Below are positions 19,767 through 56,434 of a DNA stretch of 64,000 nucleotides, piece after piece. The translations under genes and the position numbers were made by a program. This DNA comes from a virus: the IMG/VR virus record IMGVR_UViG_3300045988_081377, positions 403 to 64,402 of that record; one strand, written 5' to 3'. The notes under the pieces are model-generated. The model did no database searches and was not told the DNA's origin. It saw only the letters and a list, made by a program, of their open reading frames with translations. How positions within the stretch are numbered: position 1 is the first letter of the stretch; every line of letters begins with the position of its first letter.

Positions 19767-20282
19767 ATGGAAAATGACTCACCATATAAACGGTACGCCA
19801 ACAAAAACTTTAACAGTTTAAAAGGCAAGCAAGTTAAAAAAGGGTACGCTTATAAGAGACCGATATCAGAAAAGGATATACAGATTGCCACAATGGTATC
19901 ACAAGGTACGCCAATAACTCAAGCCAAAGCAGCGGTAGGGTTAAAAGGAAGTGCCTTAAGTAGGAACGTCAAGGACTTAGTCAAGTTTAAACAGGAACAA
20001 ATGAGGGAAAAGTTTCTTGAGGATAGTGTAGAGATATACGAAAACCTAAAAGGCTTAGCACTCAATGCCCGTTCTGAAATGGTACGCTTTCAAGCAAGTA
20101 AAGATATCCTTGATAGGGCTGGGCTTGCACCTATCGATAAGAAAGAAATCAACGAACAGAAGTTTATTTCCACAGATAGCAAGATAACGTATGACCTGCT
20201 TAACAGGTTTAAAGCATTAGAGCTTGAAGGGGATAAGGTTAATCCTGACATCACAACGATAGATGCAGATAATGACAACTAA
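19767..20282 (+). CDS. HTH-type DNA-binding protein with terminase small-subunit-like features (tentative)
   Basis: 'QIATMVSQGTPITQAKAAVGLKGSALSRN' (HTH-like) and 'ARSEMVRFQASKDILDRAGL', reminiscent of small terminases. It is not adjacent to TerL. Confidence 0.3.
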   Translation: MENDSPYKRYANKNFNSLKGKQVKKGYAYKRPISEKDIQIATMVSQGTPITQAKAAVGLKGSALSRNVKDLVKFKQEQMREKFLEDSVEIYENLKGLALNARSEMVRFQASKDILDRAGLAPIDKKEINEQKFISTDSKITYDLLNRFKALELEGDKVNPDITTIDADNDN

Positions 20283-21644: not shown

Positions 21645-23988
21645 CTGATAACAGATGTGTATATCTCTTTTCTATTGCAATGTCTTTTATCTTTTCCCAA
21701 CTCATCTCCTTGCGCGGTAACAGTGACATATCTGATAGGCAGTCCACAAATTCTACAATTGATTTAACTCTGTCGGCGTTTGTTGTGCTGGCAAAGAACC
21801 TAAACTCTACGGTGTTCCGTGGTTTTATATTAATGCCACGTGTATGGTTTCTGCGCTGTTCATATTCGTACATTAATTCTTCGTTGGATTTATCCATACG
21901 TTGACGAGTATTTTCTATATTGAAATACATCGCCGCCCACTCGTTAAACTTACCCTCTGTACGTCCTGAAAAACAAAAGATATTCTGTCTATACAAATCA
22001 GCAAACATAATTAGGTCTGCTATCTTATTTTTATCTTTCCAGAAATCCCTGCTCACATGCACGTGTATACCACTGCCGCTGGCGTCTTCGTACCCTAAGC
22101 GCTTAGCTCTATCTACCACCGTTTCCCAACCGAAATCTTTAATATGATATCCCACCGAACACGGCTCAGTTACCAATTCAAGACCACGAGTTAGTGAGCC
22201 ATCTCTCTTTGCATACAGTTCATTAAACCCATTACAGATTTTCTCTGCGTTCTCATCGGTTGTTCCGCCGTACATTAACTCCAGCTCTACACCCATGTAC
22301 TTGTGGTTATCAGTCTTACCAAAGAACGTTGGTGTCGGTTTATATCCATACTGATGTACGTGTGTACACTTTAAACTAATAACATCGTTGTACTCCGGTC
22401 TGTATCTTCCCAACTCTGCCGGTATCTTTCCTCTATGTACAAGTGATGGTTTGAAATAAATGTCTTCGCCCTCTCTGCTCTTAACTAAGATACGGTTTCT
22501 CTCGTTGTTCACAGTAAATGTTTTCATACCACAGTTATGTTTCTGTGCGTACTCTTGCGTTACTCTAACCATAGTAAACCCTTTGTCTGTATTGAGTTTA
22601 CCTTTGTGTAAACTTTTGTGTTCTATACAGCACGAACGAATGTGTGTGCTATGTGTACGACCATCCTCATCAACGTACAAGAGTGGAATATCGCGTTTGG
22701 TTTTTGGTGGAATTAGGCTGCCGCAAATAGGACAACGAACACCATCCCAAAGGTAATAGTACGCTGGGATGTTGTGTTCTCCCATGTACTTTATCACAGC
22801 GCCGCTGGTTGATGTCTTAATAATGTCACTTGCCTTTATCATTGCCAATGTTTTTTTGTCTGGTACCCAAATATTATTTTCATCGTCATGAACATGCACG
22901 TGGTACATTTCAGCAATAGTGTTTAGTGGATTTTTGTACGCCAATTCCGGTGAGTACATGGTTTTAGTTTTATTTAACCTAACAACATGTGCGCGTGGTA
23001 TATACCATCCATCACCGCCTTTCATAAAATATTTCCGTATCGTTGCTGGAGTAGTTCTTATGTACCTATACTTCTTATGGTCTTTCACCTTATAAAGTTT
23101 CAGTATACCCGGCGACATAACGCAACCGTTTACCGAGTCGTAACATTGAGCGGCAATTTTTACGAACGGATTACCGGTACAATTCATATAACGGATAAAA
23201 CTATCAACGCCAGTATCTATACTGTGCCTACCGTTCATGGTTGGAGCGTTGTTTTCCCTTCTGAATTTTGGATAATAAGAACTACCAATTCTACACCTAC
23301 CGTCGAACGACTCTCTTATGTACCATTGTAATAACGGTCTATTACTGGCGTGAGTTGAACGTACTACACCAGTAGGCAATCCTAAGTTGCCAATAAATAA
23401 AGTGTTGACGTCTGGTAATTCTCTTAACAACTTAACGTCAGGACGTACCACAACATAATGTAACTTATCAACTCCATACCAAAAACAATCTCCCAATGGT
23501 TGTCTTCTTGCCGTGGTCTGTCTTGAGTATAAACACGGAGTATCCTCAGGGACTTCCGCAGCGGGCGACTTAACAAGGCGGCAGTTACGTACCGTGTATA
23601 TGTTGTTGTTATACTTAAGTACATATCTCATGTCCGGAAGTATAGCCACCTGACTATCATGAACATCTTTCCACGTACCAATCTTAAACATGTAATCTTG
23701 GTTCATCCATCTTTTTATTTCAAGTGTACGTGATAACAGTTCCATCCTCTGATGTGGGTCATCAGGCAGCACTATACCAAAGCTACTACCTTTATCGTAA
23801 CCGGCATACATATAGTATAACCTAAGCTCCATATTACTTATGTTTCTCGATACGTATATTATAAAACCACTGTCACTCGACTGTAATCTTTTAATCGTTG
23901 GAGTAAAACTTAATTCAAATTTTCCTACAACCGCACCACTTAACTGTTGTATGTATTCCTGTTCTGTTGCTGGTGTTATCTCACTCAT
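21607..23988 (-). CDS. Large protein: unknown ~545-aa N-terminal region (Zn-ribbon) + C-terminal amidoligase (GS/GCS2-like, Pfam Amidoligase_2-type) domain, paralog B
   Basis: C-terminus has 'YMGVELELMYGG', 'DGSLTRGLELVTEPCS', 'SGIHVHVS' and 'TVEFRFFASTT'. 'CPICG....CCIEH' lies near aa 419-457. Homologous along its whole length to 23985..26267. Confidence 0.6.
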   Translation of the reverse strand: MSEITPATEQEYIQQLSGAVVGKFELSFTPTIKRLQSSDSGFIIYVSRNISNMELRLYYMYAGYDKGSSFGIVLPDDPHQRMELLSRTLEIKRWMNQDYMFKIGTWKDVHDSQVAILPDMRYVLKYNNNIYTVRNCRLVKSPAAEVPEDTPCLYSRQTTARRQPLGDCFWYGVDKLHYVVVRPDVKLLRELPDVNTLFIGNLGLPTGVVRSTHASNRPLLQWYIRESFDGRCRIGSSYYPKFRRENNAPTMNGRHSIDTGVDSFIRYMNCTGNPFVKIAAQCYDSVNGCVMSPGILKLYKVKDHKKYRYIRTTPATIRKYFMKGGDGWYIPRAHVVRLNKTKTMYSPELAYKNPLNTIAEMYHVHVHDDENNIWVPDKKTLAMIKASDIIKTSTSGAVIKYMGEHNIPAYYYLWDGVRCPICGSLIPPKTKRDIPLLYVDEDGRTHSTHIRSCCIEHKSLHKGKLNTDKGFTMVRVTQEYAQKHNCGMKTFTVNNERNRILVKSREGEDIYFKPSLVHRGKIPAELGRYRPEYNDVISLKCTHVHQYGYKPTPTFFGKTDNHKYMGVELELMYGGTTDENAEKICNGFNELYAKRDGSLTRGLELVTEPCSVGYHIKDFGWETVVDRAKRLGYEDASGSGIHVHVSRDFWKDKNKIADLIMFADLYRQNIFCFSGRTEGKFNEWAAMYFNIENTRQRMDKSNEELMYEYEQRRNHTRGINIKPRNTVEFRFFASTTNADRVKSIVEFVDCLSDMSLLPRKEMSWEKIKDIAIEKRYTHLLSDELFIESCNVSA

Positions 23989-26267
23989 AACTGTGTCTCC
24001 TCTCTTGTAAATGTAGTGTCATCAAGTAATTCCGTGTAGCCCTTTCGTTCCGCAATATCAAACAACTTATTCCAGTAAATATCCTTAGGCGGTAGTAACG
24101 ATAGGTCCGTTAAGCAATCGGTAAACTGCAAGATGGAATGTAGCCGCTTAATATCTAACGTGCTGGCAAACAATCTAATCTCTACTGTGTCAGCCGGCTT
24201 GAGATTTACAGCGTAATGATGCTGGCTGCTGTTGTTGTACTTATTGTACATTGACTTGTAATTACTTACACAATCGCTAAGCGGTACTATAAATCCATAT
24301 GGTTTCGCCCACCTATTAAACTCATCTTTACCTCTGCGAGCATAAATTCTTAACCTCTCTCTGTACCTATCGGTAAACCAGCACAGCTTTACTATCCCTG
24401 ATGTTATGTACTTACCCCAAAACTTCTTGCTTACGTGTACGTGGATACCACTGCCTTGTCTTGCCGTGTACCCCAATGCATTAGCGGTGTTCAAAACATA
24501 TTCCCACTTGAGGTTAGACAGGTGGTAGTCTAACGAGCATGGCTCTGTAATTAACTCAAAACCCTCGTCAAGTGACGAGTCTGTCTTGCAATACATTTCA
24601 GGAACCAGCTTACAGATTTTAGTTGCGCTACTATTGCTAACGCCACCATCCATAAGCTCAAGCTCAACGCCCATAAACTTATGGTTAGATGTCTGACCAA
24701 AGAACATTGGACGTGGCTTAAACCAATAGTTTTGAATAGATGTACACAACTTGTACGCCGTACCATCAGACTGGAAGTATATATCTGCACGAGGGGTACC
24801 ATCTACACCACATAAACTTTGTTTCAGCACACGTCGTATGACGTCGTTTCTCTCATGCACTATTGTTATGTTATCGGACGGAGTAAGGACTGTATCAGGT
24901 AAACGAAAGTGGTCTTTGAAATAATCAGCAACAACATCTACCGCACGTAACTCGATTGTAAGATATGTTTTATCATCAAGTTCAAGGATGGGCATGTTGT
25001 GCAGGCACTCTTTACATACCTTGTATATCTTAATTGTATGCTCCCATGGAACAACGATTGTTTGATACCCCACCGAAACTTGTATCTGCCCACAGTTATC
25101 ACAAGGGTTTGAGTTCCACAAAGGTGAGAAGTACACCCCGTCTGGTTTCATTGGTACAGTATCAGGCAACCATGTGAGAGTTTCCTTGTCACGATAATAC
25201 CCTGAGGTTTCTGTGATAGGCGTATCATTATTTATAATGAAGTCCCACCTCTCGGCTAAGTCCTCATTGTATTCGAACGTTGACGGACCGGTTCGTACAA
25301 CAAACAGACGCGGATAATATTTATCACCAATCTTGATAAAATGTTTGTTAAAGTTTTCCTCTGTTGTGTGTATAACCCTCTGGTCATAAGGCTGTACGTC
25401 TACTCTATGCATACTTAACGTACACTCTGTCGGTACGTTATCTACGATATCGTAATTACATAAGTGAGTACCCCTTACATACTGTTTAGTGTCGTTACCC
25501 AATAAAGTATTGGACAAAGCATTTCTGCGCCTATAATCCGACCCCTCGATAGGATAATATTCATACTCACCATCGGTAGACAATATGCTATCCCTATTGA
25601 TTACCTGTATCATTGACTGATAACCGTCATCAATCACATCCTGCACGTACATTATGTCGTTGTCTGTACCCTCTCTTTGTGGTATAAACATGACACCCAA
25701 CTGTACATATGTGTTCCACAAAAACAGTTTGTTTACTTTACCTAACGCACGGAATAGTTCCTGGTCGGATGGTACTAATGTTTGATGTCCATTAAATATA
25801 CCGCCGTAATATATACCGCTGTTTAATTCGACGGAATTTCTTTCTGTGTTACATGCCCGTGTCCACACCACCTTGTCATAAGGCTTTGGTTCATACACAC
25901 GCAGGTACTGCGAACTCTCAATGTAATAAGCCATGCCATTGTACTTCAAACAGTATTCAAACTTACCGTTAAAGAATATAGAGTTATTCTCCACATCCTT
26001 AAACTCACTAATCATCCAGTGGTGTATGTCACCTAACCATGCGTCCTTATGTAACCTATGTTTCAAAAACAACTCCATAAAATCAAGTGAGTTAATGTTA
26101 CATTCAAACCATGACGTAATGTCGTGGTGAAAGTAATGGTTGATGTTCCTTATTGGTTTGTGTACCATCAACATCTTACCATCACATATACGGAAAGCAA
26201 CGTAATTACTATCGCCTAAGTGTTCACGCTTTAACCTTTCCACCTCACACAGTTCCATATTTCTCAC
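23985..26267 (-). CDS. Large protein: unknown ~520-aa N-terminal region (Zn-ribbon) + C-terminal amidoligase domain, paralog A
   Basis: C-terminus has 'FMGVELELMDGG', 'DSSLDEGFELITEPCS', 'SGIHVHVS' and 'TVEIRLFASTL'. 'CDNCG...CKECLH' is at aa 389-423 (nt ~25005-25103). It makes 4-nt overlaps with both neighbours. Confidence 0.6.
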   Translation of the reverse strand: MRNMELCEVERLKREHLGDSNYVAFRICDGKMLMVHKPIRNINHYFHHDITSWFECNINSLDFMELFLKHRLHKDAWLGDIHHWMISEFKDVENNSIFFNGKFEYCLKYNGMAYYIESSQYLRVYEPKPYDKVVWTRACNTERNSVELNSGIYYGGIFNGHQTLVPSDQELFRALGKVNKLFLWNTYVQLGVMFIPQREGTDNDIMYVQDVIDDGYQSMIQVINRDSILSTDGEYEYYPIEGSDYRRRNALSNTLLGNDTKQYVRGTHLCNYDIVDNVPTECTLSMHRVDVQPYDQRVIHTTEENFNKHFIKIGDKYYPRLFVVRTGPSTFEYNEDLAERWDFIINNDTPITETSGYYRDKETLTWLPDTVPMKPDGVYFSPLWNSNPCDNCGQIQVSVGYQTIVVPWEHTIKIYKVCKECLHNMPILELDDKTYLTIELRAVDVVADYFKDHFRLPDTVLTPSDNITIVHERNDVIRRVLKQSLCGVDGTPRADIYFQSDGTAYKLCTSIQNYWFKPRPMFFGQTSNHKFMGVELELMDGGVSNSSATKICKLVPEMYCKTDSSLDEGFELITEPCSLDYHLSNLKWEYVLNTANALGYTARQGSGIHVHVSKKFWGKYITSGIVKLCWFTDRYRERLRIYARRGKDEFNRWAKPYGFIVPLSDCVSNYKSMYNKYNNSSQHHYAVNLKPADTVEIRLFASTLDIKRLHSILQFTDCLTDLSLLPPKDIYWNKLFDIAERKGYTELLDDTTFTREETQL

Positions 26268-27337
26268 CTCACCTTCGGCAATACTTTAATCTTAGGTTTC
26301 TTAGCTGCGCCCTGTTTAATTACTTTAATCTTACCAGTTAATTTTCTCTGCGCATACGTATCATAGAAATCATATTCCGATGCCTTGTCAAAGTGATACA
26401 TCTTAAACAAATCCTCATCTATCTCTGCACGTACAAGGAAAATTATTTTATCGTACACACGGATGGACGACACAGTCATGTCGTAATCATTAAGCATGCC
26501 CTCAAGCAATACCTTAATGTCATCCTTATCATATGTCTGCACATCCTCTTTTAGTACGAATTTAATCTCAAGCCTTACCGGTAATAGCGGAGACTTTACG
26601 TTACTTACACTTGCCTGAGTTAAAGCTGGAGTTGTTTTGCTCGCAACTGGCTGTGTAGTAGACATACAGGTGGCACCACATGTATCACCGTACTGACTGC
26701 TGTACCCATAGTAACCATAGCTGCCATAATTATACCCACCGTATCTGCTGTACTGTTGTTTCTTGTACGATGAATTGCTGTACGTTGCCTTGCTTGTCAG
26801 GCTCTGTTCAAAGTTACCTATCGTACTCACGTTATCCTTGTTCATCACTGCAAGTTTAGAGTAACCAATGTGTGAGCTTAACAGTTCCTCAATGAGCGAG
26901 TCGTGCAAGTCAAGTCCACGTACTAACAACTCATTTAACATCCGCTTACCAAACGCCATACTGTCTGAATAGTTAGCAGTCAATCCACCTTGTGGGTTAT
27001 AACTATGCAGTACACCATTATGAGCGAACGCCCACGTTGCAGTGGTGTCAAGTAATCTCATCTCCTCGTACTTAGGCGACACGGGAAATGGATGGCAACA
27101 TTCAGGTGAAACCTTACCGGCTGTAGCAATGCGACAATGGATAACCCTGTCACAATCTACAGGTAATGTTTTCAAAAACTCAACAAACTTTTCTTTCTCC
27201 ATGAAACCTTTGCGGACATGTACCGTGTGTCCATCATTCCACATAACACCGGCGCCATCTTTATTCCGCGTAAAACAATTGTCCATCTCGTCATAGTTAA
27301 ACGGGATGTTCTTTCTATACACACCAATCACACACAT
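26264..27337 (-). CDS. Class-II (Ntn) glutamine amidotransferase-like / YafJ-type thiol enzyme with Tyr/Gly/Ser linker and unknown C-terminal domain
   Basis: It starts 'MCVIG' (Cys2 nucleophile position). 'HCRIATAG', 'CHPF' and 'WAFAHNGVL' parallel YafJ/GAT-II motifs. aa ~186-217 read 'SSYKKQQYSRYGGYNYGSYGYYGYSSQYG'. Confidence 0.6.
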   Translation of the reverse strand: MCVIGVYRKNIPFNYDEMDNCFTRNKDGAGVMWNDGHTVHVRKGFMEKEKFVEFLKTLPVDCDRVIHCRIATAGKVSPECCHPFPVSPKYEEMRLLDTTATWAFAHNGVLHSYNPQGGLTANYSDSMAFGKRMLNELLVRGLDLHDSLIEELLSSHIGYSKLAVMNKDNVSTIGNFEQSLTSKATYSNSSYKKQQYSRYGGYNYGSYGYYGYSSQYGDTCGATCMSTTQPVASKTTPALTQASVSNVKSPLLPVRLEIKFVLKEDVQTYDKDDIKVLLEGMLNDYDMTVSSIRVYDKIIFLVRAEIDEDLFKMYHFDKASEYDFYDTYAQRKLTGKIKVIKQGAAKKPKIKVLPKVR

Positions 27338-28394: not shown

Positions 28395-29024
28395 TCACGC
28401 ATCAAACTTTTCTTTTGTAAACTCTCGTGATAAAGCAACAACACTATCCCAAAGTTTTTCGGGAATAATCTTGTTTTCTCGAACTCTCTTATCTACTTCC
28501 TCAAACGGTACCACGTCACTACGTACACCATACGCCGCATAACACGCCAACAATTCACCCTCAATAGATGGATAAATAGCCACGTCAAGCATTAACCAAT
28601 GTCCAAGTGTGACAAAGAAAAACTGTGAGGCATCGGTAATTTTTGCCTTATTAAATTCGCACGATAAGAGTAGGTGAAATCTACCCCGTACGTCTATAAT
28701 AGAGTCAACAATATTACCTTGACCATAGAAGTGTACACCACGCACACGAGAATTTCCTTTAACGTGGTATCCCTCAATGTGGGCATGAATAAGTGCCGAC
28801 GAGTCGCAAACAGAACCATCAGCGTTGCCGCCCACCCATGACTTATCGTATTGACTAAGTATCTCTGGGTCACTCACAAAACCGCCCATTTGACCATACA
28901 ACACGGTATTACCGTCAATCGTGTAAAACTGTTTAAGAGACTGTATCCGATAAACAGTAGCCCCGTTAATGGTTTTAGTGTGGTCTGTGAGCTTGAATTT
29001 TGCACATTCAGGCACATTAAACAC
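28395..29024 (-). CDS. Beta-helix-repeat protein (paralog of 27797..28255)
   Basis: 'YRIQSLKQFYTIDGNTVLYGQMGGFVSDPEILSQYDKSWVGGNA'. GTG start at 29024, or more likely 29015 given the 'AAAGGGG' spacing. Confidence 0.5.
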   Translation of the reverse strand: MFNVPECAKFKLTDHTKTINGATVYRIQSLKQFYTIDGNTVLYGQMGGFVSDPEILSQYDKSWVGGNADGSVCDSSALIHAHIEGYHVKGNSRVRGVHFYGQGNIVDSIIDVRGRFHLLLSCEFNKAKITDASQFFFVTLGHWLMLDVAIYPSIEGELLACYAAYGVRSDVVPFEEVDKRVRENKIIPEKLWDSVVALSREFTKEKFDA

Positions 29025-29129: not shown

Positions 29130-29576
29130 TTATACGCCGAGGATAGCCTTGACGAGTTCGTTCTTAGCTGCACGCAAGGTGTCCATGTCATCCTCAACGT
29201 GTGCTTTCTTAAAGCCGGCTAAGAGCTTTTCGCCAATGTCCAAAATCTGTTTACGTTCCTGTGCTTCCTGTACATCAGAACGTTTCAGAATGGGATGGAA
29301 CGGATAATTCCGTTTGTCGTGCATGAAAGTTACGGACAGTGACGGGATAAGTGCATCAGCACCCTCAACTTCCACGTCTTTGAGCTTCATTTCCATGGCG
29401 TAAGGTTTCCCTACCACACCATTAAAACGGTTCTTTTCCGTGTCAGAATACATCACGTCCTTGAACCCTTCCTCTTCACCCACGGGTCCTACCGCGAGTA
29501 CTGCGTAACGCCCATCGCCCAATGCGACGGCTTTAACGCCATTTTCCAAATCTTTTGCAAATTCCTTGAGTGTCAT
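29130..29576 (-). CDS. Early-type hypothetical protein (family with 30894..31400)
   Basis: Strong RBS 'AAAAGGAGAG'. Its own AT-rich upstream region. The C-terminus 'LRAAKNELVKAILG' matches 'IRAATKELMKKAIG' of the paralog. Confidence 0.6.
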   Translation of the reverse strand: MTLKEFAKDLENGVKAVALGDGRYAVLAVGPVGEEEGFKDVMYSDTEKNRFNGVVGKPYAMEMKLKDVEVEGADALIPSLSVTFMHDKRNYPFHPILKRSDVQEAQERKQILDIGEKLLAGFKKAHVEDDMDTLRAAKNELVKAILGV

Positions 29577-29832
29577 GTTAGTCTCTCCTTTTCTGTAAAA
29601 TACATGTACACATACTCTACACGCATATGATTATACACGTGTGTTATATAGATATCTCTTTCGTAATTAACACGCGCGTTAATTAATTAAATTAATCAGA
29701 AAGAGAAAATCTACAATCTGGACTTTTGTTAGCTGTTTAGCTTGTTTACAGCTTTTCGAAGCCAGTTACCAATAGGTATAGCAAGTTAGTTACCAGCCCC
29801 AATTTTTCCACTTTTCTAATCTTTCTCTCATC

Positions 29833-29880
29833 AAAGGAACGAAATAAATCCGTTCCAATGTGACAATTTATATCGTCACT
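29833..29880. repeat. Copy 1 of a ~48-bp direct repeat
   Basis: 'aaaggaacgaaataaatccgttccaatgtgacaatttatatcgtcac' compared with copy 2 at 30814-30861 (one indel and about three mismatches). Confidence 0.85.
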
Positions 29881-30716
29881 TGGCTATTAAACATCTCGAT
29901 AACGATATTGAATATTTCAATAGCGAAATGCTGTTTCGCACTTTTGACGTAAACGTGTTTTTGCGAAATAACATAAAACACACACGTAAAACGGCGGGGA
30001 TAGTCCTTTGTGATTAATTTTCGCCAGAAAATAAAAAAACTTTTATTAGCCCTTCCCTTTATATTATATATATACAATAACAACACTAACACCAATAACA
30101 TATACCATACACGATAACACACGCGTATAGTGAATTTTCGATTTTCACCAAAAACACGCAAAACACGCATAAAACCTAACAATTTCAACTCCGAAGACTA
30201 AGGAGAAAAAATAGAAGACAGAAGCCGAGCACAGTAAAAAAATATAAAAAAGTATTTCCCCGTATTTTCCCGCACTTAATGAACATAATGTTCGGTATCT
30301 TTAGTAAGCCTAAAAAGCACGATAAATACTGAAAAGTTAAAAAGGGGTAAAAGGATGGTTGACAATAAGAGCCTAAATATCTAAGACTTTAGCAAAGTAA
30401 AGGATACAGGTATAATGGGGGTTGTAAGATTTGGTGGTGTCAAAAATCACGGGGTTATATAAAAAAGGGAAAAAGGACGTAAAAGAGAGTAAAAAGAGTA
30501 CAAGTTGACAATAGAATAGATGAAGGATGTAAAAAGCACTGTTCTATTTTGGGCTATAAGGCGTCTCCAACATGTCTCATATACATTTATATCAAAAAGG
30601 TAGTACCCCCCTCTTAAAACGCAAAATAGAGTGGTTTTTGACGATGCTACCAATTATATTGGTGGCACTGAACAATTTATAATTGTTCTCTTCTAAGATT
30701 AGGCACGCTGCACGCC

Positions 30717-30796
30717 TATATATAATGGTAATGCCAAAAGGCATTAGGATTATATACACTGGGGGATTTTTAATCCCTCTCTATATATAATAGAAG
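30717..30796 (+). promoter_or_regulatory. Twin-TATATAAT element Y (box - hairpin - GATTATA..CACT core - hairpin - box)
   Basis: Box 30717-30726. Hairpin 'taatgcc aaaa ggcatta' at 30729-30746. Core 30747-30760. Hairpin 'gggggatt ttt aatccctc' at 30761-30779. Box 'tatatataatagaag' at 30782-30796. Same architecture as 34235-34309. Confidence 0.5.
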
Positions 30797-30808
30797 TGTA
30801 ATCAGGCA

Positions 30809-30837
30809 ATAAAAAAGGAACGGAATAAATCCGTTCC
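30809..30837 (-). terminator. Rho-independent terminator (- strand) after gene 30894..31400; lies inside direct-repeat copy 2
   Basis: The - strand reads 'ggaacgg atttatt ccgttcc tttttt'. Confidence 0.7.
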
Positions 30838-30861
30838 AATGTGACAATTTATATTATCACA
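30814..30861. repeat. Copy 2 of the ~48-bp direct repeat
   Basis: 'aaaggaacggaataaatccgttccaatgtgacaatttatattatcac'. Confidence 0.85.
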
Positions 30862-30893
30862 AGGACTGGAATAACCAGTCCTCATGGGGGATT

Positions 30894-31400
30894 TTACTCG
30901 CCGATAGCTTTTTTCATAAGCTCTTTGGTTGCGGCTCTTATCTCGTCCGCCGTCATATCCTTGTAGTTAGGATATTCCCTTGCAATTGACGGATTCCCGC
31001 CATTGCCGTCGAACATAAACGCAGCCGCATTAATCAGGCGTTTACGCTCTTTCTCCTCTGCTGATTCCTCGAGGTTTAACTTTGTGTTATGGTCCTTGAG
31101 GGAAACCGACAACATTATTCCCTTTTCAATATTCAAGGCTTTCATACCGCCTTGATAGGGGACTTTTATTAAATTCCCCTTAATATTGGGGAATGTGAGG
31201 CGGACGTAATGTGTCTCGCCATCTTTTACGTGAGCCTCTGCTTTGCTGTTTTCGGCGTAAGGGACGAGTTCCAGTATCCCCACGGCGTCCAGTTTAACGC
31301 CGTTTCCATAGGGGGAAACCGTTCCCCCCACATCCTCTTTATTGATTTTCGGTAAGTTCAGGCTTTGCAAGAACCTACCTACTACTGAGGAGATTTTCAT
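30894..31400 (-). CDS. Early-type hypothetical protein (family with 29130..29576)
   Basis: ATG at 31400 (M12 of the track ORF), 1 nt after the stop of the upstream gene. The C-terminal helix is shared with 29130..29576. Confidence 0.55.
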   Translation of the reverse strand: MKISSVVGRFLQSLNLPKINKEDVGGTVSPYGNGVKLDAVGILELVPYAENSKAEAHVKDGETHYVRLTFPNIKGNLIKVPYQGGMKALNIEKGIMLSVSLKDHNTKLNLEESAEEKERKRLINAAAFMFDGNGGNPSIAREYPNYKDMTADEIRAATKELMKKAIGE

Positions 31401-31401
31401 A

Positions 31402-31650
31402 TTAATCCGCCTCTCTTTCCAGCTTAATTTCACCGCCGTTTATAACGGCAACGGCTTTAATGAGATAAGTCAGGATTTCCCCTAACTCGTCACGGCTGCC
31501 ATCTGTCAAGATTTCAGCAGAGAAATCCTCTTTGCTGATGCTAATCTTGTACCGTTTACTGTCAAACGGTACTACACAACAATGACCATCCTCGCTGGTC
31601 ACTGTAAAATGATTGACAGCGGAAACGTCCAGTTTGAATTTCGGCAACAT
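31402..31650 (-). CDS. Hypothetical early protein
   Basis: 82-aa ORF with RBS 'AAAGGTGG'. Confidence 0.5.
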   Translation of the reverse strand: MLPKFKLDVSAVNHFTVTSEDGHCCVVPFDSKRYKISISKEDFSAEILTDGSRDELGEILTYLIKAVAVINGGEIKLEREAD

Positions 31651-31776
31651 AAAATTACCACCTTTCTGTCCTATTCAGGACAATAACTGTTTTTTTTTAT
31701 TCAGTTTTCAAAGAACACCAGCAGTTTTACTGCTGTTACTTATAAGTATGCGTAGTTAGTTATTATATAATGTAAA

Positions 31777-31801
31777 TAAAAAAAGCACCTGTTAAGGTGC
31801 T
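31777..31801 (-). terminator. Rho-independent terminator (- strand) after gene 31810..32232
   Basis: The - strand reads 'agcacct taac aggtgct ttttttt'. Confidence 0.75.
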
Positions 31802-31809
31802 GGTGGCGG

Positions 31810-32232
31810 TTAGCTCCAATACGTACCTACCTGTTCCTCAAACCAGTGTTTACCGTGTCCCCAAAACTCAATGTCTTTCATAAGAAATTCATCAGGAATA
31901 CCGTATCCTAACAGATACGCATTTTCTCTGCTGTACCACGGTGTGGCATATTCTTTTATCTCCACAATGGCGCTCCAATCGTCGGTAGTGAAGTCAGGGT
32001 AATACCCGCTATTAACTTCCAGATAACGAGACGGGATAAAAAACTTACAGATATAATGTTTCCCCGTCCCCGCTCCCCAATGCGCGCAATTATTCGCATT
32101 GGTGAAAAAGCAAACTGCTTTTTCCAGTTTGCTGCTGTTATTATACAGGCGCATATCACAGCGCCCATATATTCTTAAACCAGCGGAATAATCCGCCAGT
32201 TCTTTCTCTGACATTTTACGATACACTATCAT
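31810..32232 (-). CDS. Hypothetical early protein (first gene of the - block)
   Basis: 140-aa ORF with RBS 'AAAGGGGG'. Trp/Tyr-rich. No secure motif. Confidence 0.55.
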   Translation of the reverse strand: MIVYRKMSEKELADYSAGLRIYGRCDMRLYNNSSKLEKAVCFFTNANNCAHWGAGTGKHYICKFFIPSRYLEVNSGYYPDFTTDDWSAIVEIKEYATPWYSRENAYLLGYGIPDEFLMKDIEFWGHGKHWFEEQVGTYWS

Positions 32233-32951
32233 TGTGTACCCCCTTTCTGCCTGATTACAGGCAATACAAATACTTCTAATTTTACCGCAAGGTATCTGTA
32301 CTTAGTTATTTTTTTATTCTTTTCCCTCTACTATCTATATACAAACATCTGTTCTACCAAACATACGTACGGGTGGGGCTTGGCTAATGGGTATGGTGTA
32401 TCTCAAAAGGGGGTACGAGGGTATCTGTTATTAAAAATATATAATGTTCCTGTATATGAATTAAATGTTTGTTTAATAGAGATTGTCAACCTTATAAATC
32501 AGAAAGTATTCAATACGTAAAAGCATACACACTAATCATAAAAGGATATACTCTTACATTGGTAATGGTAGTATTGGTATTAATGGTATAGGATAAGTTG
32601 AATATTAAGGGTAGGGCTAATAATTTTCTTTTTCCGCCGCGAAGGATGCTTTACCCACCCCGTATTTAATAATATTTTAATACTTTTATAGGAGTTGATT
32701 TAAGGGCTTTGAAGAAGGTCAAAGGTCTTCTGGTATTCAGAAGTTGCTGGACCCCTCTTAAAAACGATTTTAGACCACTTCTTGACGATTTTAAGAGAAG
32801 GGATTGAATGGGGTGGGGCTTGTTTTAGTGGTAGTGGCAACAAATATAATTTGTTGTCCTCAATAAGATGCTTTTAGCATCTTATAGTGGTTGTTATAGA
32901 TAGTATTTTATCTTGGTTATAGAAAAGTTCTATTACAAAATGGGGGTGGTT

Positions 32952-32983
32952 TTCAGTATATTATAGAGGGGTATTAAAATCCT
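32952..32983 (+). promoter_or_regulatory. Copy 1 of the conserved 'TTCAGTATA(T/A)TATAGAGGGGTATTAAAATCCT' box
   Basis: 32 nt, differing at one position from copy 2 at 33084-33115. Confidence 0.6.
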
Positions 32984-32996
32984 TCTGATTATACAC

Positions 32997-33025
32997 TTGA
33001 CATTTTATTATCTTTGGTGTATAAT
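32997..33025 (+). promoter_or_regulatory. Consensus sigma70-type promoter (TTGACA-17-TATAAT) firing into ORF-free sequence
   Basis: TTGACA at 32997-33002, a 17-nt spacer, TATAAT at 33020-33025. Confidence 0.65.
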
Positions 33026-33083
33026 AGTGACAGCTATGAAAAAGTAGCTTCAATACTATGTTTTTGAGAGGTTCTTAACCCTT

Positions 33084-33115
33084 TTCAGTATATAATAGAG
33101 GGGTATTAAAATCCT
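33084..33115 (+). promoter_or_regulatory. Copy 2 of the conserved box
   Basis: 'ttcagtatataatagaggggtattaaaatcct'. Confidence 0.6.
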
Positions 33116-33779
33116 CACCGGTGTTTTCCTTAGTTAGACCGGTCTATCAACTCAAACATAAACGGCGTTATAGAGAGTTGCGTTTATTCTCTATGATGAC
33201 TTCGGAGTTTTACAAGTTGTTCAAGTTCACTTAGTTGTAGGTGGCTCAGTCGTTAAACATCAATAAGCACCTGTCCAACAAAAAGACTGTTCGTTTTCTT
33301 TGTTTCTATTAACAATATATTCCCAGAGATGGGGCGGTCCCTGCTGTAAAGGCGCGCAGGACAGGGCAACCGGTAATTATGACAGTCGTACCCTTGAGAT
33401 ACTAAACGTACTCTTGGCTATACCTTGAAGGTAATTCTACCTTTCTTGAAAAACCAGTGTTTGTGCCGGAAGGGCTGGGTTTAAAAGAAAGTGGAAGCTG
33501 GGTGGAGTGTTTTGGGGGGTTTGGGGGGTCTATTCTTTCCGACCGGCACTTGGAACTGAATACTCTTTATCTCTTTTAGTTACTTAACTGTTTAAAGAAC
33601 ACTTAGTAGTACTCTTTAAATACAGTTGTTGTTAATAGAAAGAATAGAGAGAAAGAAAAGCCATGCAGAATAACCACGGTTATCTACCCTCTTTTCTTTA
33701 AGCTTACACCCTTAACAGTATATTTATCTTTAACTTTATCTTTTTAGAGACAGTTTATTAATACTTTATAGTTATTTAC

Positions 33780-33808
33780 TTGACAGAACATTTTTTATGT
33801 GATATAAT
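33780..33808 (+). promoter_or_regulatory. Perfect-consensus sigma70-type promoter with extended -10 (TTGACA-17-TGaTATAAT)
   Basis: TTGACA at 33780-33785 and TATAAT at 33803-33808, preceded by 'TGa'. AT-rich UP-like sequence lies upstream. Confidence 0.75.
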
Positions 33809-33836
33809 ACAGTCAAGACAGAAAGGAGTGTATATC

Positions 33837-34001
33837 TTGGATATTTATGTACCCGGATTTAATCCCGAAGTAGAAAAAGAAGCTGTTGAAGCTATGACCC
33901 CGTTATTTGCAGAGGCAGATAAGGAAGAAGTTACAGAAGAATTAGAAGAGAATGTGGAAGTAGAAAGCAAACCTAAACGTAAAACAAAGACAAAAGAATA
34001 A
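33837..34001 (+). CDS. Small, very acidic protein with a basic C-terminal tail (54 aa, TTG start)
   Basis: RBS 'AAAGGAG' lies 8 nt before TTG at 33837. Sequence: 'LDIYVPGFNPEVEKEAVEAMTPLFAEADKEEVTEELEENVEVESKPKRKTKTKE'. The 5' part of track ORF 33780.. is the promoter itself. Confidence 0.5.
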   Translation: MDIYVPGFNPEVEKEAVEAMTPLFAEADKEEVTEELEENVEVESKPKRKTKTKE

Positions 34002-34109
34002 TCTTTCCTGATTAATCATACAATAAGCACAGTATAGCTGGGCATCTGCTGTGTTACCCGTCTCGAACCTGCAACAGAGACACCGCCCACCATGGGCTGT
34101 AAGCCTAAA

Positions 34110-34199
34110 GAAAAGCCATGTCCATAGCCATGCGGATACACCCGCGTTCCTGTGATGCTTGCATCAGTTGTTGGGAACAGGTTTCCTGCATGGCTTTTC
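34110..34199 (+). terminator. Large structured element / candidate terminator-attenuator
   Basis: 11-bp closing stem 'gaaaagccatg' (34110-34120) / 'catggcttttc' (34189-34199). Inner hairpin 'tgatgc..gcatca' at 34153-34166. A duplicated 'gccatg' offers alternative pairing. T-rich sequence follows the stem. Confidence 0.35.
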
Positions 34200-34229
34200 T
34201 ATTGCTTATTTTACGTGTTTTAAGGTATG

Positions 34230-34314
34230 TTCAGTATATAATAATAACGTCAAGGACGTTAAGATTATACACTTCAAGAGATTTTCAATCTCTTTCAGTA
34301 TATAATAGGAGAAG
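34230..34314 (+). promoter_or_regulatory. Twin-TATATAAT element X immediately upstream of the late (grx-terL) operon; contains box copies 3 and 4
   Basis: Box 34235-34242. Hairpin 'taacgtc aag gacgtta' at 34245-34261. Core 'agattatacact' at 34262-34273. Hairpin 'aagagatt ttc aatctctt' at 34276-34294. Box 'ttcagtatataataggagaag' at 34294-34314. Confidence 0.55.
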
Positions 34315-34353
34315 TTTTATTCTGATTTGTTGTCTTTATAAAGGGGTGGGGTA

Positions 34354-34581
34354 ATGGCTCTTATGATTTCAGGTCCTGTATGCGGGTATTGCCGCCGTAT
34401 AAGACCTTTATATGATAAGGTTTGTGCTGATTTGGGTATAGAACCTCGTCATATTATGTATTCTGATTATGATGGTGAGGTGGAAAGTGTCCCTTGCCTG
34501 ATTAATAAAGAAGGAAAGAAGATGTACGGGGGTAATCATAACTACGATGAGCTTAAACAGTTCTTTATCGGAGATAAATAA
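34354..34581 (+). CDS. Glutaredoxin/NrdH-like small redox protein
   Basis: 75 aa with 'CGYC' (CxxC) near the N-terminus, plus 'VPCL' and 'GG..' in thioredoxin-fold order. RBS 'AAAGGGGTGGGG'. Confidence 0.55.
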   Translation: MALMISGPVCGYCRRIRPLYDKVCADLGIEPRHIMYSDYDGEVESVPCLINKEGKKMYGGNHNYDELKQFFIGDK

Positions 34582-36010
34582 GGCTTACGGGGCGGCTAAA
34601 AGCAACCTTGTGAACTTTAGAAGGCTGTTTCTTCCCCTTGATGGTGATGTAAAGTCCCCTTGGTACCACTATGAGTGGTCTGATATACTGCTTAATGGTA
34701 CTACTAACTATGCCGTAGAGGGTTTTAGACAGTCGGCTAAGTCTTCTATCGTCCTTCGTGCCTTTCCTTTGTACTGTTTGACCTTTCCGGAGAGGAAAAG
34801 ACAGTATATTGTGTTCATTATGTCCAACCAGACCCGTGCTTCTGCCCGTTTAAAGGAGATTGCCGACGAATATATCACCAATCCCCTGCTTAATCTTAAC
34901 TTAAAACAGGTAAAAGAGCAGTCACAGAAGGCTTTTGAGGTTGATTTGTACACCGGCGTCACCAATGAGGACGGTGAACGTGAATATATCACCGTAAGAA
35001 TGGAAGCTTATGGTAAAGGAAGTGCTGTCCGTGGTCTTAACTGGCATGATTTGCGCCCCTCTATCGTTCTGATTGACGACCCACAGGACTTGGAAGACTC
35101 TTTGTCTGATACTATACAGTCTAAAGACTGGGATTGGTTCTTGTCTGATGTGTATAACTTAGGTAAAGACTCCCGTATCTTTATGATTGGGAATAACTTG
35201 GGTGCTAAATGTATCATAGAACAGGTGGCATCACAGCCTGAAAGCCTTAACTTTACGTTTATGCGTATACCTATCCTGAATGATGAGGGAGAAAGTAACT
35301 GGGCAGAGGCTTTCCCCGTGGAAGATATCCACGCGGAGCGTGATAAGTTCTCTGCCTTGGGTAAGCTTGACATATGGGAAAGAGAAAAGATGTGCATAGC
35401 TATCTCCCCTGAACTTGCTATATTTAAGAAAAGGTATTTCCGTTATTTTGATTTATCTAAATTCAATAGGGAAGACTGCACTGTCTTCATTACGATGGAC
35501 TTGGCGGTATCACAAAGGGAAAGTGCTGATGATACTGTGGTACTTGTCAATGCAGTAAACCCGCAGAACCAGTGGTTTATTATTGATTGTGTTGCTGAAC
35601 GTATGGACCCGTCAGCAGCTATTGATATCCTGTTTGATTTTGTAAGTAAATACCACCCTGTCAAGGTGGGTATAGAAAAAGTAGCCTTTCAGGCGGCTAT
35701 GCGTCACTTCGTGGAAAAAGAAATGCCCAACAGAAAGATTTACTTTGTGATTGAAGACCTGCTCGCTAAAGAAAAGAAGGAGCTTAGAATACAGACAGCA
35801 TTGCAGCCAAGGTTCGCACAGGGTACTATATGGCTTCCCGTGGGAGCTAAGTGGGTTAATAAGCTTGAGGAGCAGCTGCTTACGTTCCCGAAAGGTAAGC
35901 ATGATGATATGATAGACGCACTGGCTTATCAAGACCAGATAGCAGTAGCCCCTGTATCTTCTTGGGATGATGTAGCTGACGATGACATAGGGCTTGCGGG
36001 CGGGTTATAA
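34547..36010 (+). CDS. terL: Terminase large subunit
   Basis: 'VLIDDPQD' (Walker B-like). Nuclease-domain motifs 'FITMDLAVS..DDTVV' and 'KGKHDDMIDALAYQ'. The portal gene follows directly. Confidence 0.8.
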   Translation: MSLNSSLSEINKAYGAAKSNLVNFRRLFLPLDGDVKSPWYHYEWSDILLNGTTNYAVEGFRQSAKSSIVLRAFPLYCLTFPERKRQYIVFIMSNQTRASARLKEIADEYITNPLLNLNLKQVKEQSQKAFEVDLYTGVTNEDGEREYITVRMEAYGKGSAVRGLNWHDLRPSIVLIDDPQDLEDSLSDTIQSKDWDWFLSDVYNLGKDSRIFMIGNNLGAKCIIEQVASQPESLNFTFMRIPILNDEGESNWAEAFPVEDIHAERDKFSALGKLDIWEREKMCIAISPELAIFKKRYFRYFDLSKFNREDCTVFITMDLAVSQRESADDTVVLVNAVNPQNQWFIIDCVAERMDPSAAIDILFDFVSKYHPVKVGIEKVAFQAAMRHFVEKEMPNRKIYFVIEDLLAKEKKELRIQTALQPRFAQGTIWLPVGAKWVNKLEEQLLTFPKGKHDDMIDALAYQDQIAVAPVSSWDDVADDDIGLAGGL

Positions 36011-38194: not shown

Positions 38195-38971
38195 ATGCCA
38201 AATATACGTTTTGTAAATAGGATATCAGATGCTGATGTGAACCCAAGAGACGTAGAGGACACTATCACGCCGCACTTTACTCAGCTAAAGGATAGTGAAG
38301 AGTGGAAGAATTACCACCCTGATTTATATGGTCCGCTTAGGTGGGTTGACAGGGGTAATCCTGTTGAGGTACATCCGGAAGTATTGCCATCTAATGTGGG
38401 CGGGGATGTGATGATTAATAGTCCCTATGGTCAGGCTATGGCTGATGGAGCAACCATAAATGATATCAGGGACATTGATAGAGCTATGGATAAAGCTTAT
38501 CCTGCTGAAAATCCTAAAGAGCTTTCTCTTAAGGATAGGATTAAAGCAATCCTTAGCGACCCTAATAATAAGTTTATTCAGTCAGCTAATAGGGGTGATG
38601 AGCTTAATAAGTCTACGGAGATTAAAGCTAACTCAATTAATCCGGAAGTGGTAAAAAGATATCTCGCCTCTAAACAGCGGGATAATGACATCAAGGCTTA
38701 TAATGAATGGGCTGCAAGCCAGCAACCATCGGCTTCGGCGGACGTTACGTACACTCCGTCAGTATATAATAGAGAGGATTATTCCCCGTATATTGAAGCA
38801 CCTGCTTATGAACAGCAGCCAATTAACTTGCCGGAATATGTAAATAGTGAACAGCCGCAGCAGGCAGCGGAAGCGCCTGACCTTGGTTATTCACTGCCGG
38901 ACTATGGTAACTCTAACCCATTATCTGTGTCTGATATCTTACATTACGCAAGGGCTATGAACAGAGGCTGA
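38195..38971 (+). CDS. Hypothetical head-module protein
   Basis: 258-aa ORF between portal and scaffold. No protease motif recognised. Confidence 0.5.
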   Translation: MPNIRFVNRISDADVNPRDVEDTITPHFTQLKDSEEWKNYHPDLYGPLRWVDRGNPVEVHPEVLPSNVGGDVMINSPYGQAMADGATINDIRDIDRAMDKAYPAENPKELSLKDRIKAILSDPNNKFIQSANRGDELNKSTEIKANSINPEVVKRYLASKQRDNDIKAYNEWAASQQPSASADVTYTPSVYNREDYSPYIEAPAYEQQPINLPEYVNSEQPQQAAEAPDLGYSLPDYGNSNPLSVSDILHYARAMNRG

Positions 38972-38976
38972 TGCTT

Positions 38977-38996
38977 TTCAGTATATATATAGAGGG
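38977..38996 (+). promoter_or_regulatory. Copy 5 of the 'TTCAGTATATA(T)ATAGAGGG' box, upstream of scaffold + major capsid genes
   Basis: 'ttcagtatatatatagaggg' starts 6 nt after the preceding stop and lies ~50 nt before ATG 39046. Confidence 0.55.
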
Positions 38997-39045: not shown

Positions 39046-40131
39046 ATGGAAGATATTGTACAGGGCAACGACCCACAGGTAGCACAGGAACCGCAGGTAC
39101 AGGAACCGGCACAACCCGCAGTGGATGCTGGTGGGGACCAGACGGCTAACCAAGACGGTAATCTTTGGGACTTTGCTTTAGACGCCGACGGTAATCCCGT
39201 CTTTTCCGAAAGTTTCTTATCGGATAGTGACGACGGAGCGCAGTCGGAGCCTACGCCAGAAGGTGACGAGTCACCTAAAGAAGGGGAAGACCCTAAAGAC
39301 CAGCAGACTGAACCTGAACCCCTTGACATGAACCGTATGGTGACGGTCAAGGTTGATGGACAGGATGTACAGGTCCCACTGCAAGAAGCTCTTAACGGTT
39401 ACATGAGGCAGGCAGCATTTACCAAAAAGACACAGGAACTCGCACAGCAGCGCCAGCAGTTACAGGCGATGCAGGTGAATACTCCACAGCCGCAGGTACA
39501 GCAGCCTATCCAGCCGAAACCGGAAGACGTTGCAGCACAGCAGAAGCGGTACATCGAACAGATGGACGCCTATGCTAAGGAGCGTGTTAAAGCGCTCTAC
39601 GGAGCTGACTTTGACGAGTACAACCCACAGCATATGGCAGCATATGTAAATGAAGTTGGCAATGTTAAGGCAGCTATGATACAGAGGGTGAATGAAGAAA
39701 GGGCTGCACAGGAAGCGGAAAACGCTCGGCAGCAGCGCATGAGCGCATTGACAGCCAAGTATCAGCAGGACCCGAATTTTGATGCCATTAATTCTCTCGC
39801 ACAGAAAAACCTTGAGAACCTGCCATACAAAATGTATAAGCAGGTTACTGACGCTATGACAACTGGCAACGTAGAAGTGATTGATAATTACATGAGCGCA
39901 GTGCGCGATATGTTCTACGGCAACACTCCCAAACCGACTGTGACACAGCCGCAGTCAGCCCCACAGCAGGCAGCCGCACAGCAGTCTGTACAGCCACCGT
40001 TTGTTGAACAGACAAACAATAGGGCACAACAGCCTGTGGTGCAGACACCTGATTGGTCTAAGCTTGGGAGAATGACCAATGACCAGCAGGCGGCAATGAT
40101 TTCTAAATATGCGAAAGACTTTGGCGTGTAA
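39046..40131 (+). CDS. Scaffolding protein (Gln-rich, coiled-coil)
   Basis: Position between portal and MCP. Acidic N-terminus and long Q/A-rich helical regions. Confidence 0.6.
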   Translation: MEDIVQGNDPQVAQEPQVQEPAQPAVDAGGDQTANQDGNLWDFALDADGNPVFSESFLSDSDDGAQSEPTPEGDESPKEGEDPKDQQTEPEPLDMNRMVTVKVDGQDVQVPLQEALNGYMRQAAFTKKTQELAQQRQQLQAMQVNTPQPQVQQPIQPKPEDVAAQQKRYIEQMDAYAKERVKALYGADFDEYNPQHMAAYVNEVGNVKAAMIQRVNEERAAQEAENARQQRMSALTAKYQQDPNFDAINSLAQKNLENLPYKMYKQVTDAMTTGNVEVIDNYMSAVRDMFYGNTPKPTVTQPQSAPQQAAAQQSVQPPFVEQTNNRAQQPVVQTPDWSKLGRMTNDQQAAMISKYAKDFGV

Positions 40132-52884: not shown

Positions 52885-53242
52885 TGATACAATATACGAC
52901 TACACCGGACTCGTTGAGCACGTGAAGACATACATCAAAAAGACTAAATCCGACTTGCTTGAAGACCTAAAAGACTTTGAGTATAGATGTATTTGTTATG
53001 ACGGTAGATTTATTACGTTCAATGTATATAAAGACTATATTGAGATAGGTCCCAGCTGCTGTGACTGGCGGACTGGTGACTGTTTGTTCTGGCACATAGG
53101 GGCTGTGCTTAAAATAAATAAACTTAGAACGAGGACGGAACGTAACCCGATGGCATATGCCAGATTAACCCACTCCAAACTGATAGAAGTTTTGGAAGAT
53201 GGTAGTGGTATTCTTGAAAAGGAGTTGCCGAATGGGCGGTAA
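52823..53242 (+). CDS. Hypothetical protein
   Basis: 139-aa ORF overlapping its neighbours. Confidence 0.45.
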   Translation: MQTEKEIHQAVNGLISLTAFDDTIYDYTGLVEHVKTYIKKTKSDLLEDLKDFEYRCICYDGRFITFNVYKDYIEIGPSCCDWRTGDCLFWHIGAVLKINKLRTRTERNPMAYARLTHSKLIEVLEDGSGILEKELPNGR

Positions 53243-56425: not shown

Positions 56426-56434
56426 GGGGGTTCT

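Follow-up and report, generated by a model that had tools for sequence, protein, structure and literature searches.

The window analysed here, a 64,000-nucleotide (nt) stretch of the IMG/VR virus record IMGVR_UViG_3300045988_081377, represents the nearly complete ~64-kb genome of an uncultivated human-gut podovirus, and it contains three copies, designated Y, Z and X, of a composite element in which two promoter-like boxes enclose hairpins and a core. These elements are probably, though by no means securely, cassettes similar to those known from T4-like phages as promoter-early stem-loops (PeSLs; Arbiol et al. 2010, PMC2839356; Comeau et al. 2014, PMC4122927), assembled around the phage's own -10-type box and spread by recombination from box to box. 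For comparison, 10 near-identical genomes were collected through the exact thioredoxin-like protein of the window, read at 10 places among the 154 collection blocks carrying that protein, and L001 was added from IMG/VR, so that 11 distinct genomes were compared.

The layout proposed in the first-pass annotation, namely a box, hairpin 1, a core GATTATA(TA)CACT, hairpin 2 and a second box, was read exactly in X and Y, and a search with the box placed all copies of the element on the + strand, as had been claimed. Y occupies 30715-30796, with box starts 66 nt apart, and consists of box 1 (CCTATATATAATGGT, 30715-30729, a variant of the promoter-like box), hairpin 1 (TAATGCC-aaaa-GGCATTA, 30729-30746), the core GGATTATATACACT (30747-30760), hairpin 2 (GGGGGATT-ttt-AATCCCTC, 30761-30779, with one G.T pair on the + strand) and box 2 (CTATATATAATAGAAG, 30781-30796). 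X occupies 34232-34310, with box starts 64 nt apart, and consists of box 1 (CAGTATATAATAATA, 34232-34246), hairpin 1 (TAACGTC-aag-GACGTTA, 34245-34261), the inverted box-like core GATTATACACT (34263-34273) followed by the degenerate -35 sequence TTCAAG, hairpin 2 (AAGAGATT-ttc-AATCTCTT, 34276-34294) and box 2 (CAGTATATAATAGGA, 34296-34310), which lies 44 nt ahead of the start of the late operon and was found in 11/11 genomes. The positions described for the two elements were also correct: X lies directly ahead of the late operon, with its thioredoxin-like gene, TerL and portal gene, and Y lies within the minus-strand block, where it adjoins a minus-strand terminator.

The expanded copy, Z (32954-33100), contains both boxes, the core and a consensus promoter. 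Box 1 (CAGTATATTATAGAG, 32954-32968) is followed by the core GATTATACACT (32987-32997), which is immediately 5' of the -35 hexamer of a sigma70/sigmaA promoter matching the consensus at 12/12 positions (TTGACA-N17-TATAAT, 32997-33025), and the -10 region of this promoter, GTGTATAATAG, is one mismatch from the box. An imperfect hairpin (GAGAGGTT-ctt-AACCCTTT, 33066-33083), kept in relatives with the long Z form, lies just 5' of box 2 (33086-33100, exact consensus), which points into ultra-conserved non-coding DNA at 33101-33600. The core was found to be an inverted copy of the box, a feature absent from the first-pass annotation: ATTATATAC, which is contained in the core of Y, is the reverse complement of the box 9-mer GTATATAAT.

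The consensus of the box, CAGTATATAATAGAG, is longer than the TATATAAT box described originally and is the most over-represented word of the genome. Every match to the 15-mer with ≤2 mismatches was on the + strand. Nine copies, all on that strand, were identified, with the exact consensus at 33086, 38760 and 52759 and near-consensus sequences at 32954, 34232, 34296, 30781, 30715 and 38979. The 12-mer CAGTATATAATA occurs five times and is the top repeated non-simple word in the window, and GTATATAATAG with ≤1 mismatch gave 10 matches versus 2.3 expected, a number reached in 0/100 shuffles. Three of the boxes had not been recognized before: I1 (38760-38774, exact consensus) inside the open reading frame (ORF) at 38195-38971, I2 (CAGTATATATATAGAG, 38979-38994) in an intergenic region ahead of the gene at 39046-40131 and the SU10-type capsid gene, and I3 (52759-52773, exact consensus) inside the ORF at 51310-52884, 64 nt ahead of the gene at 52823-53242. 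Both I1 and I3 lie toward the 3' ends of late ORFs, and the box sites as a whole are located ahead of the late operon (X), ahead of the scaffold/capsid genes, in two late ORFs, and at Z and Y. Across the 11 genomes, none of the 15 positions of box I1 was variable, compared with 88 of 308 (29%) in its flanks, and this invariance within an ORF indicates that the box is under selection beyond coding. A box-like sequence, ACGTCTATAATAGAG, was also observed at 28690-28704 (+) in the minus-strand ORF 28395-29024; it is kept in the relatives that share that gene and may be a further antisense box.

A perfect -10 hexamer, TATAAT, is present in every box. In L059, L063, L064 and L068, as in Z, a consensus -35 is found at the appropriate distance, the TATAAT of the box lying exactly 17 nt downstream of TTGACA and the sequence gattat(a/g)(c/t)ac preceding TTGACA, which strongly suggests that the box is a -10 promoter element. 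The proposal that a sigma70 promoter had been inserted after the core of Z did not hold, since in the relatives the core is the DNA 5' of the -35 TTGACA and the box is the -10; X and Y, whose core is thus the sequence that precedes a -35, look like promoter modules with a hairpin in the spacer. As read from the sequence, the -35 is missing at X, Y, I1, I2 and I3. Because most boxes lack a -35, they are probably -35-less promoters for which a phage factor would be required. The other consensus sigma70 promoters of the window (3810, 3913, 11521 and 33780 on the + strand; 2987 and 32489 on the minus strand) do not contain the box, which therefore appears to mark a distinct class of promoters confined to the late side.

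The claim that the hairpins are conserved in structure through compensatory changes had been based on two copies and was substantiated on nine distinct 64-65-nt cassettes drawn from the 11 genomes; both further copies and covariation were thus found in relatives. Standard base pairs were formed in 134/134 stem cells of this alignment, 9 of the 15 pairs showed a compensatory change, and the covariation score was 0.557, compared with 0.251 in shuffles, and was reached by 0/500 of them. When the pairing partners were slid as a control, just 34-49% of cells paired. The inter-box segments folded more stably than their shuffles (z of -2.9 to -5.6 as RNA and -5.4 to -6.4 as DNA), and the real leader of the late operon was unstructured (z of +0.16). 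Wobble pairs occur four times in the stems, always as G.T on the + strand and never as A.C, a mild indication in favour of + strand RNA. Taken with the invariance of I1, these comparisons indicate that the box and the stems are under selection. A search of Rfam 15 gave no match at the gathering score over the whole window and none at E≤1 in 29500-34400.

The 64-65-nt unit of box, hairpin, core, hairpin and box was either present or absent at five box sites among the 11 genomes, which are ~95-99% identical, and differing hairpin sequences filled identical positions in different relatives. The view of the element as a fixed functional unit was consequently abandoned, as the cassettes at X, Y and other sites come and go between near-identical genomes. 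The twin-box state was observed at X in 5/11 genomes, at I2 in 4/11 (L061, L062, L065 and L067), at Y in 1/11 (the window only), and in 1/11 at W, a pseudo-box site at ~32680 of the window that is filled in L061 only. L001 carries only one box at X and one degenerate box at Y, within flanks that are ~98-100% identical, and L059 has a single box at Y, corresponding to box 2. At Z, one to four boxes were found with several cassette types, including 33-34-nt units of box, hairpin and box and a 52-nt form. The junctions of the insertions and deletions at X, Y, I2 and W and within Z were always located inside the box. The 'empty' X alleles of L059 and L067 retain half of hairpin 2, which indicates that deletions also occur.

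The same hairpin modules were found at different sites in different genomes: the TAATGCC hairpin is shared by Y of the window and I2 of L065, the GGAACAAC hairpin by I2 of three genomes and Z of L068, and the GGAAGAC hairpin by X of three genomes and Z of L068. This distribution indicates that the cassettes move between boxes and recombine within the core. The cassettes recurred in independent samples and assemblers (megahit and SPAdes contigs from ENA, and Logan assemblies), and because the samples and assemblers differ and the repeats (12-14 nt) are far shorter than assembly k-mers, the polymorphism is not considered an artefact. The minus-strand genes at 30700-32300 are replaced or absent in most close relatives (the gene at 31810-32232, for example, is found elsewhere only in L061), and this segment is hyperplastic, bounded by site Y and by the non-coding region that contains W and Z.

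Copies of the cassette were restricted to the lineage of the window. A covariance model (R1) run on 60 sources detected none in L002-L050, a gapped core-to-box pattern gave six chance matches only in IMG/VR, and a metagenome scan with the thioredoxin-like protein returned two irrelevant loci. Relatives at 75-77% TerL identity are without the box and carry at the same place one to three copies of a different box, TCTCAAGAAAAATATAAGTCC, followed by a hairpin, and relatives at 55-60% identity carry two or three tandem copies of still other boxes, 30-73 nt apart. Box copy number varies between close relatives among these distant lineages too. Since distant relatives also carry them, tandem, lineage-specific boxes of variable copy number ahead of the late operon are a trait of the whole group.

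In the mechanism that is proposed here, the boxes would be the promoters from which host RNA polymerase transcribes the late rightward genes, probably together with a phage factor because most boxes lack a -35. Each cassette would then act as a tandem promoter, with stem-loops just past one -10 and just ahead of the next. The hairpins would act on + strand RNA arriving from upstream, as attenuators or insulators, as proposed for the PeSLs of T4-type phages; such a role is more likely than that of 5' stabilisers, because, with the usual distance between -10 and start point, hairpin 1 would contain the start of any transcript from box 1. Gain and loss of a cassette may occur by recombination or template switching between the 12-14-nt boxes, with the consequence that a cassette could land at any box and leave that box duplicated, and the transfer would use the Rad52-like annealing protein and the exonucleases encoded by the phage. 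The + orientation of Y is compatible both with a chance landing at a box-like site and with late antisense transcription. Y was also considered as a minus-strand element and this was rejected, since the + orientation fits the canonical box better and its hairpin module is also on the + strand at I2 in L065.

Several observations weigh against this interpretation. X and Y have no usable -35, the TTCAAG sequence lying 22 nt from TATAAT, and Y is oriented against its local genes, with the minus-strand terminator (30817-30837) beside it. The hairpins have no proper U-tract, and no + strand cassette hairpin passed the terminator scan, in which only hairpin 1 of X was flagged, on the minus strand and with a weak T/A tail. 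The boxes lie on the late side and mostly lack a -35, whereas PeSLs are early promoters in hyperplastic regions, and the unit is 64 nt long without an ORF, whereas PeSLs usually bracket ORFs. The cassettes are dispensable, and whatever function they have must therefore be a modulatory one; the conservation of the hairpins could instead serve the spread of the cassette itself. Finally, Pfam and PHROGs searches of ~50 ORFs revealed neither a phage sigma factor nor an RNA polymerase nor an activator. When phiEco32 gp36 was compared with all 439 ORFs of the window by phmmer, the best E-value was 0.22, and a very divergent sigma factor could escape this search. Proteins of 977, 179 and 148 amino acids (aa) gave no transcription-factor match in a PDB sequence search; the first of these, the product of the largest ORF of the window, matched nothing in PHROGs, Pfam or the PDB sequence set, and the genome does not encode a giant virion RNA polymerase. 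Immediately upstream of the late operon, a very acidic 54-aa protein without a family match is encoded at 33837-34001 in all relatives, predicted to be expressed from a perfect extended -10 consensus promoter (33780-33808); as a speculation, it is a candidate modifier of host RNA polymerase.

An alternative to which we give only limited credence is that the cassette is a selfish mini-element, a 64-nt non-autonomous unit that targets the promoter box and is copied as folded single-stranded DNA by a nuclease, a recombinase or fold-back priming, so that the hairpins and the inverted box would be kept for copying and not for regulation. Its presence or absence at five box or box-like sites with the target duplicated, the single insertion at the degenerate pseudo-box W in L061, the conservation of structure and not of sequence, and the dispensability of the cassettes are all as expected for such a unit, and the attC sites of integrons, which are recognised by their structure, offer a parallel. 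No terminal inverted repeats are present, however, and no transposase or integrase was found in the scanned ORFs; the duplicated 'target' of 9-14 nt is always box homology, as in homologous exchange, and not the product of a fixed staggered cut, and the deletion derivatives of L059 and L067, with breakpoints in hairpin 2, resemble ordinary recombination. There is likewise an outside chance that the cassette is a self-propagating, non-coding 'promoter-homing' unit that copies itself into any late box by box-primed template switching and whose inverted box, as a built-in structural switch able to pair with either flanking -10, tunes late transcription; in that case, gut phages would have a new class of regulatory mobile element, unlike PeSLs, miniature inverted-repeat transposable elements (MITEs) and attC cassettes. 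The inverted box also enters a structural switch, in which the core would pair with the box on either its upstream or its downstream side, in a DNA cruciform or in RNA, hiding one -10 or forming alternative long hairpins and so setting the amount of transcription that enters the late genes. This is improbable, even if the core and the box 9-mer are reverse complements, the minimum-energy structures join the core to box 1 around hairpin 1 (Y, I2 and W) or to box 2 around hairpin 2 (X forms), and the 52-nt Z-alt cassette combines the box variant GTATATTAT with the complementary core variant ATAATATAC as a compensatory pair. That pair represents one evolutionary event, the 8-9-bp AT-rich stems are weak, some of the pairing comes free with the self-complementary TATATA centre of the box, and the core variants ATCATATAC and ATGATATAC bring uncompensated mismatches; the last two points are the reason why the switch was retained as a rival only.

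HK022 putL and putR differ from each other by compensatory changes, and a put-like cis-acting antiterminator RNA, which would let RNA polymerase read through terminators along the whole 22-kb late operon, would likewise have two stem-loops directly past a promoter-like box, ahead of a long operon, in copies that differ by compensatory changes. This is highly improbable, given that L001, L059, L061 and L064 have no cassette ahead of the late operon, that Y faces away from any long operon, that transcripts from box 1 would start inside hairpin 1 and that Rfam gave no match; L001, L059 and L064 lack a cassette both at the late operon and at I2, and an antiterminator of this kind cannot be required. 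The prospect of a small RNA gene, in which box 1 would drive a two-hairpin RNA of ~55 nt ending at hairpin 2, is very slim: a promoter-like box is indeed followed by two stable hairpins and a U/A-rich stretch after hairpin 2, but a real U-tract is missing, the cassettes vary in copy number and are dispensable, and hairpins are swapped freely between copies, which leaves no conserved seed or target-pairing region except the core. A chance AT-rich repeat or an assembly artefact, which the AT-rich and partly self-complementary nature of the box might suggest, can practically be discounted in light of the shuffle statistics, the independent samples and assemblers, the shortness of the repeats relative to k-mers and the covarying hairpins. 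Site-specific nick sites or pac sites were rejected because the TTGACA-N17 arrangement and the positions ahead of operons fit promoters better, and a protelomerase-type palindrome was rejected as a mere TATA-rich resemblance that fits neither the layout of a lytic podovirus nor any protein match.

The comparison with PeSLs, on which the preferred interpretation as promoter/stem-loop cassettes draws, also answers the statement that no element with this layout had been described, since the cassettes of T4-like phages are an analogue (PMC2839356, PMC4122927). In PeSLs, the stem-loops sit between the -35 and -10 of sigma70-like promoters, overlap them or follow the -10, and they act as terminators and mediate insertions and deletions (PMC2839356); attenuation of upstream transcription was proposed and was shown in one case (PMC2839356, PMC4122927). 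PeSLs are early promoters of T4-like myoviruses and usually bracket ORFs (PMC2839356, PMC4122927). The cassettes described here share with them the short composite of a sigma70-type promoter element and a stable stem-loop, the placement of the stem-loop relative to -35 and -10, the repetition within one genome at boundaries of insertions and deletions between close phages, and modules thought to spread by recombination between copies. They differ in that the phage lineage is an SU10/N4-like podovirus and not a T4-like myovirus, in that the unit has two hairpins and an inverted box, in that the hairpins covary across copies, and in that the promoter and terminator roles are predicted ones. Because of the lineage, the late-side and -35-poor boxes, the ORF-free 64-nt unit, and the two hairpins with the inverted box, the cassettes are regarded as PeSL-like and not as members of the PeSLs.

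In phages of the phiEco32/SU10 type, middle and late promoters are read by the phage sigma factor gp36; those of phiEco32 have a single conserved element, AATGTA, centred at -11.5, and its early genes use consensus sigma70 promoters (PMC12276001). The phage of the window has a related structural module (SU10_portal, SU10_MCP) and similarly one conserved element around -10 (AGTATATAAT) that marks non-early genes, with consensus sigma70 promoters at its early genes. In contrast to phiEco32, no gp36 homologue and no Pfam sigma domain were detected, the box holds a perfect host-type TATAAT, and twin-box hairpin cassettes are not part of the phiEco32 account (PMC12276001). The two promoter-proximal stem-loops, with copies differing by compensatory changes, resemble the put sites of HK022, from which the cassettes differ in being dispensable and variable in position, in the probable start inside hairpin 1 and in having no sequence or Rfam similarity. 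N4 has a distantly related terminase and short hairpins (5-8-bp stem, 3-4-nt loop) beside transcription signals; the giant virion RNA polymerase that reads N4 hairpin promoters has no counterpart here, and the present hairpins either precede a classical -10 by ~20-40 nt or closely follow it, and are not the promoter itself. The cassettes are small, non-coding, hairpin-forming and polymorphic in presence, like MITEs, repetitive extragenic palindromes and the mosaic elements built from them (REP/BIME) and integron attC sites, and with attC they share the conservation of structure rather than sequence. Unlike MITEs, their ends (ATAACGTC... and ...CTCTTTC) are not inverted repeats and the flanking repeats of 9-14 nt are the box, and the scanned ORFs included no cognate transposase, REP-associated tyrosine transposase (RAYT) or integrase. 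The G+C-rich stem and U-tract of an intrinsic terminator were not found in any + strand cassette hairpin.

If the PeSL-like interpretation is correct, mobile regulatory cassettes, so far described only for the early promoters of T4-like phages, would also operate in unrelated and abundant gut podoviruses, in a minimal, ORF-free form with covarying hairpins. The box supplies a candidate late-promoter consensus for a phage group that has no cultured member, and the presence/absence alleles in near-identical genomes form a natural set for measuring the effects of the cassettes. The phage would also be a concrete example of how short promoter boxes, as points of recombination, can reshape regulatory regions.

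The rest of the genome is organized as follows. The + strand at 1-20 kb encodes a DnaE-type polymerase, a primase-helicase and a ribonucleotide reductase, and the minus-strand block at 20.3-32.2 kb encodes a helicase, two amidoligase-like proteins and a glutamine amidotransferase. A non-coding gap of 1.5 kb (32.2-33.8 kb) is followed by the late block on the + strand, which opens with the genes for the thioredoxin-like protein (34354), TerL (34547) and the portal (35994). The portal and capsid proteins are of the SU10 type according to precomputed Pfam matches (SU10_portal, SU10_MCP), the nearest cultured terminases to TerL are N4-like at ~26% identity, and the phage encodes a Rad52-type annealing protein and exonucleases. 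A human-gut metagenome contig of 64,205 nt (L060) is identical to the window across 20,228 nt. Megablast of 30000-35000 against INPHARED found no cultured phage with a DNA-level match, and a tRNA scan found nothing.

Further observations were made on the gene content. A 171-aa protein matching small terminase subunit families (phrog_2538, E=8e-14) is encoded at 19767-20282 (+), at the end of the replication block and 14 kb from TerL. At 21607-27337 on the minus strand, two large amidoligase-domain proteins and a class-II glutamine amidotransferase adjoin the helicase, and this cluster suggests a pathway for DNA base hypermodification. At 56000-64000, GC and AT skew stay positive as in + strand coding, yet the longest listed ORFs are on the minus strand and had no PHROGs match; the true genes may be short early genes of the + strand. 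GC skew was dropped as a marker of the origin, as it merely tracks gene orientation. Sequences of LAGLIDADG-type homing endonucleases are inserted in some relatives, in L065 (16031-16735) as a separate gene ahead of the capsid gene and in L066 (11671-14853) inside an enlarged portal gene of 1060 aa, where the insertion may be an intein or an intron.

The non-coding DNA around the elements has features of its own. The 500 nt at 33101-33600, 3' of Z box 2 and of the promoter at 32997, are 97-100% identical in 10/10 close relatives and thus more conserved than the coding DNA of TerL and portal (90-97%), and its flanks show more rearrangement than any other part of the region. The segment holds no ORF above 42 aa and gave no Rfam match, and it may be a cis-acting DNA element (a packaging site, a genome end or an origin) or a non-coding RNA. 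A global RNA structure of 33097-33640 was dropped, the fold z being only -1.6 (+) and -2.2 (-), and homology of the non-coding 32240-34350 with distant relatives, which had been suspected by eye, was not found by BLAST. Past the small ORF, a conserved structured segment at 34010-34205 forms a long-range stem (GAAAAGCCATG...CATGGCTTTTC) followed by a T-run and looks like a terminator separating the early unit of the 33780 promoter from the late operon; a similar GAAAAGCCATGC is located at 33658.

Beside Y, a direct repeat of ~46 nt (29835-29880 and 30813-30860), which comprises a minus-strand terminator (GGAACGnAATAAATCCGTTCC) and AATGTGACAATTTATAT, flanks a largely non-coding stretch of 1 kb. 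A motif of the form AAACGGCG...N...TTATTAGCCC...TTAA/TATAT was found at 29990-30070 (+) and 32600-32650 (-), inverted around the variable minus-strand genes; it is also present in L002, L006, L007, L045 and L049, ~1.5-2.4 kb upstream of TerL, and is conserved in relatives at 75% TerL identity. Finally, GGGTGGGGCTT(C/G) is located at 32374, 32811 and 34343 of the window and upstream of the late operon in L002-L041, so that it recurs across the group near the start of the late operon, and in distant relatives it flanks the tandem boxes.

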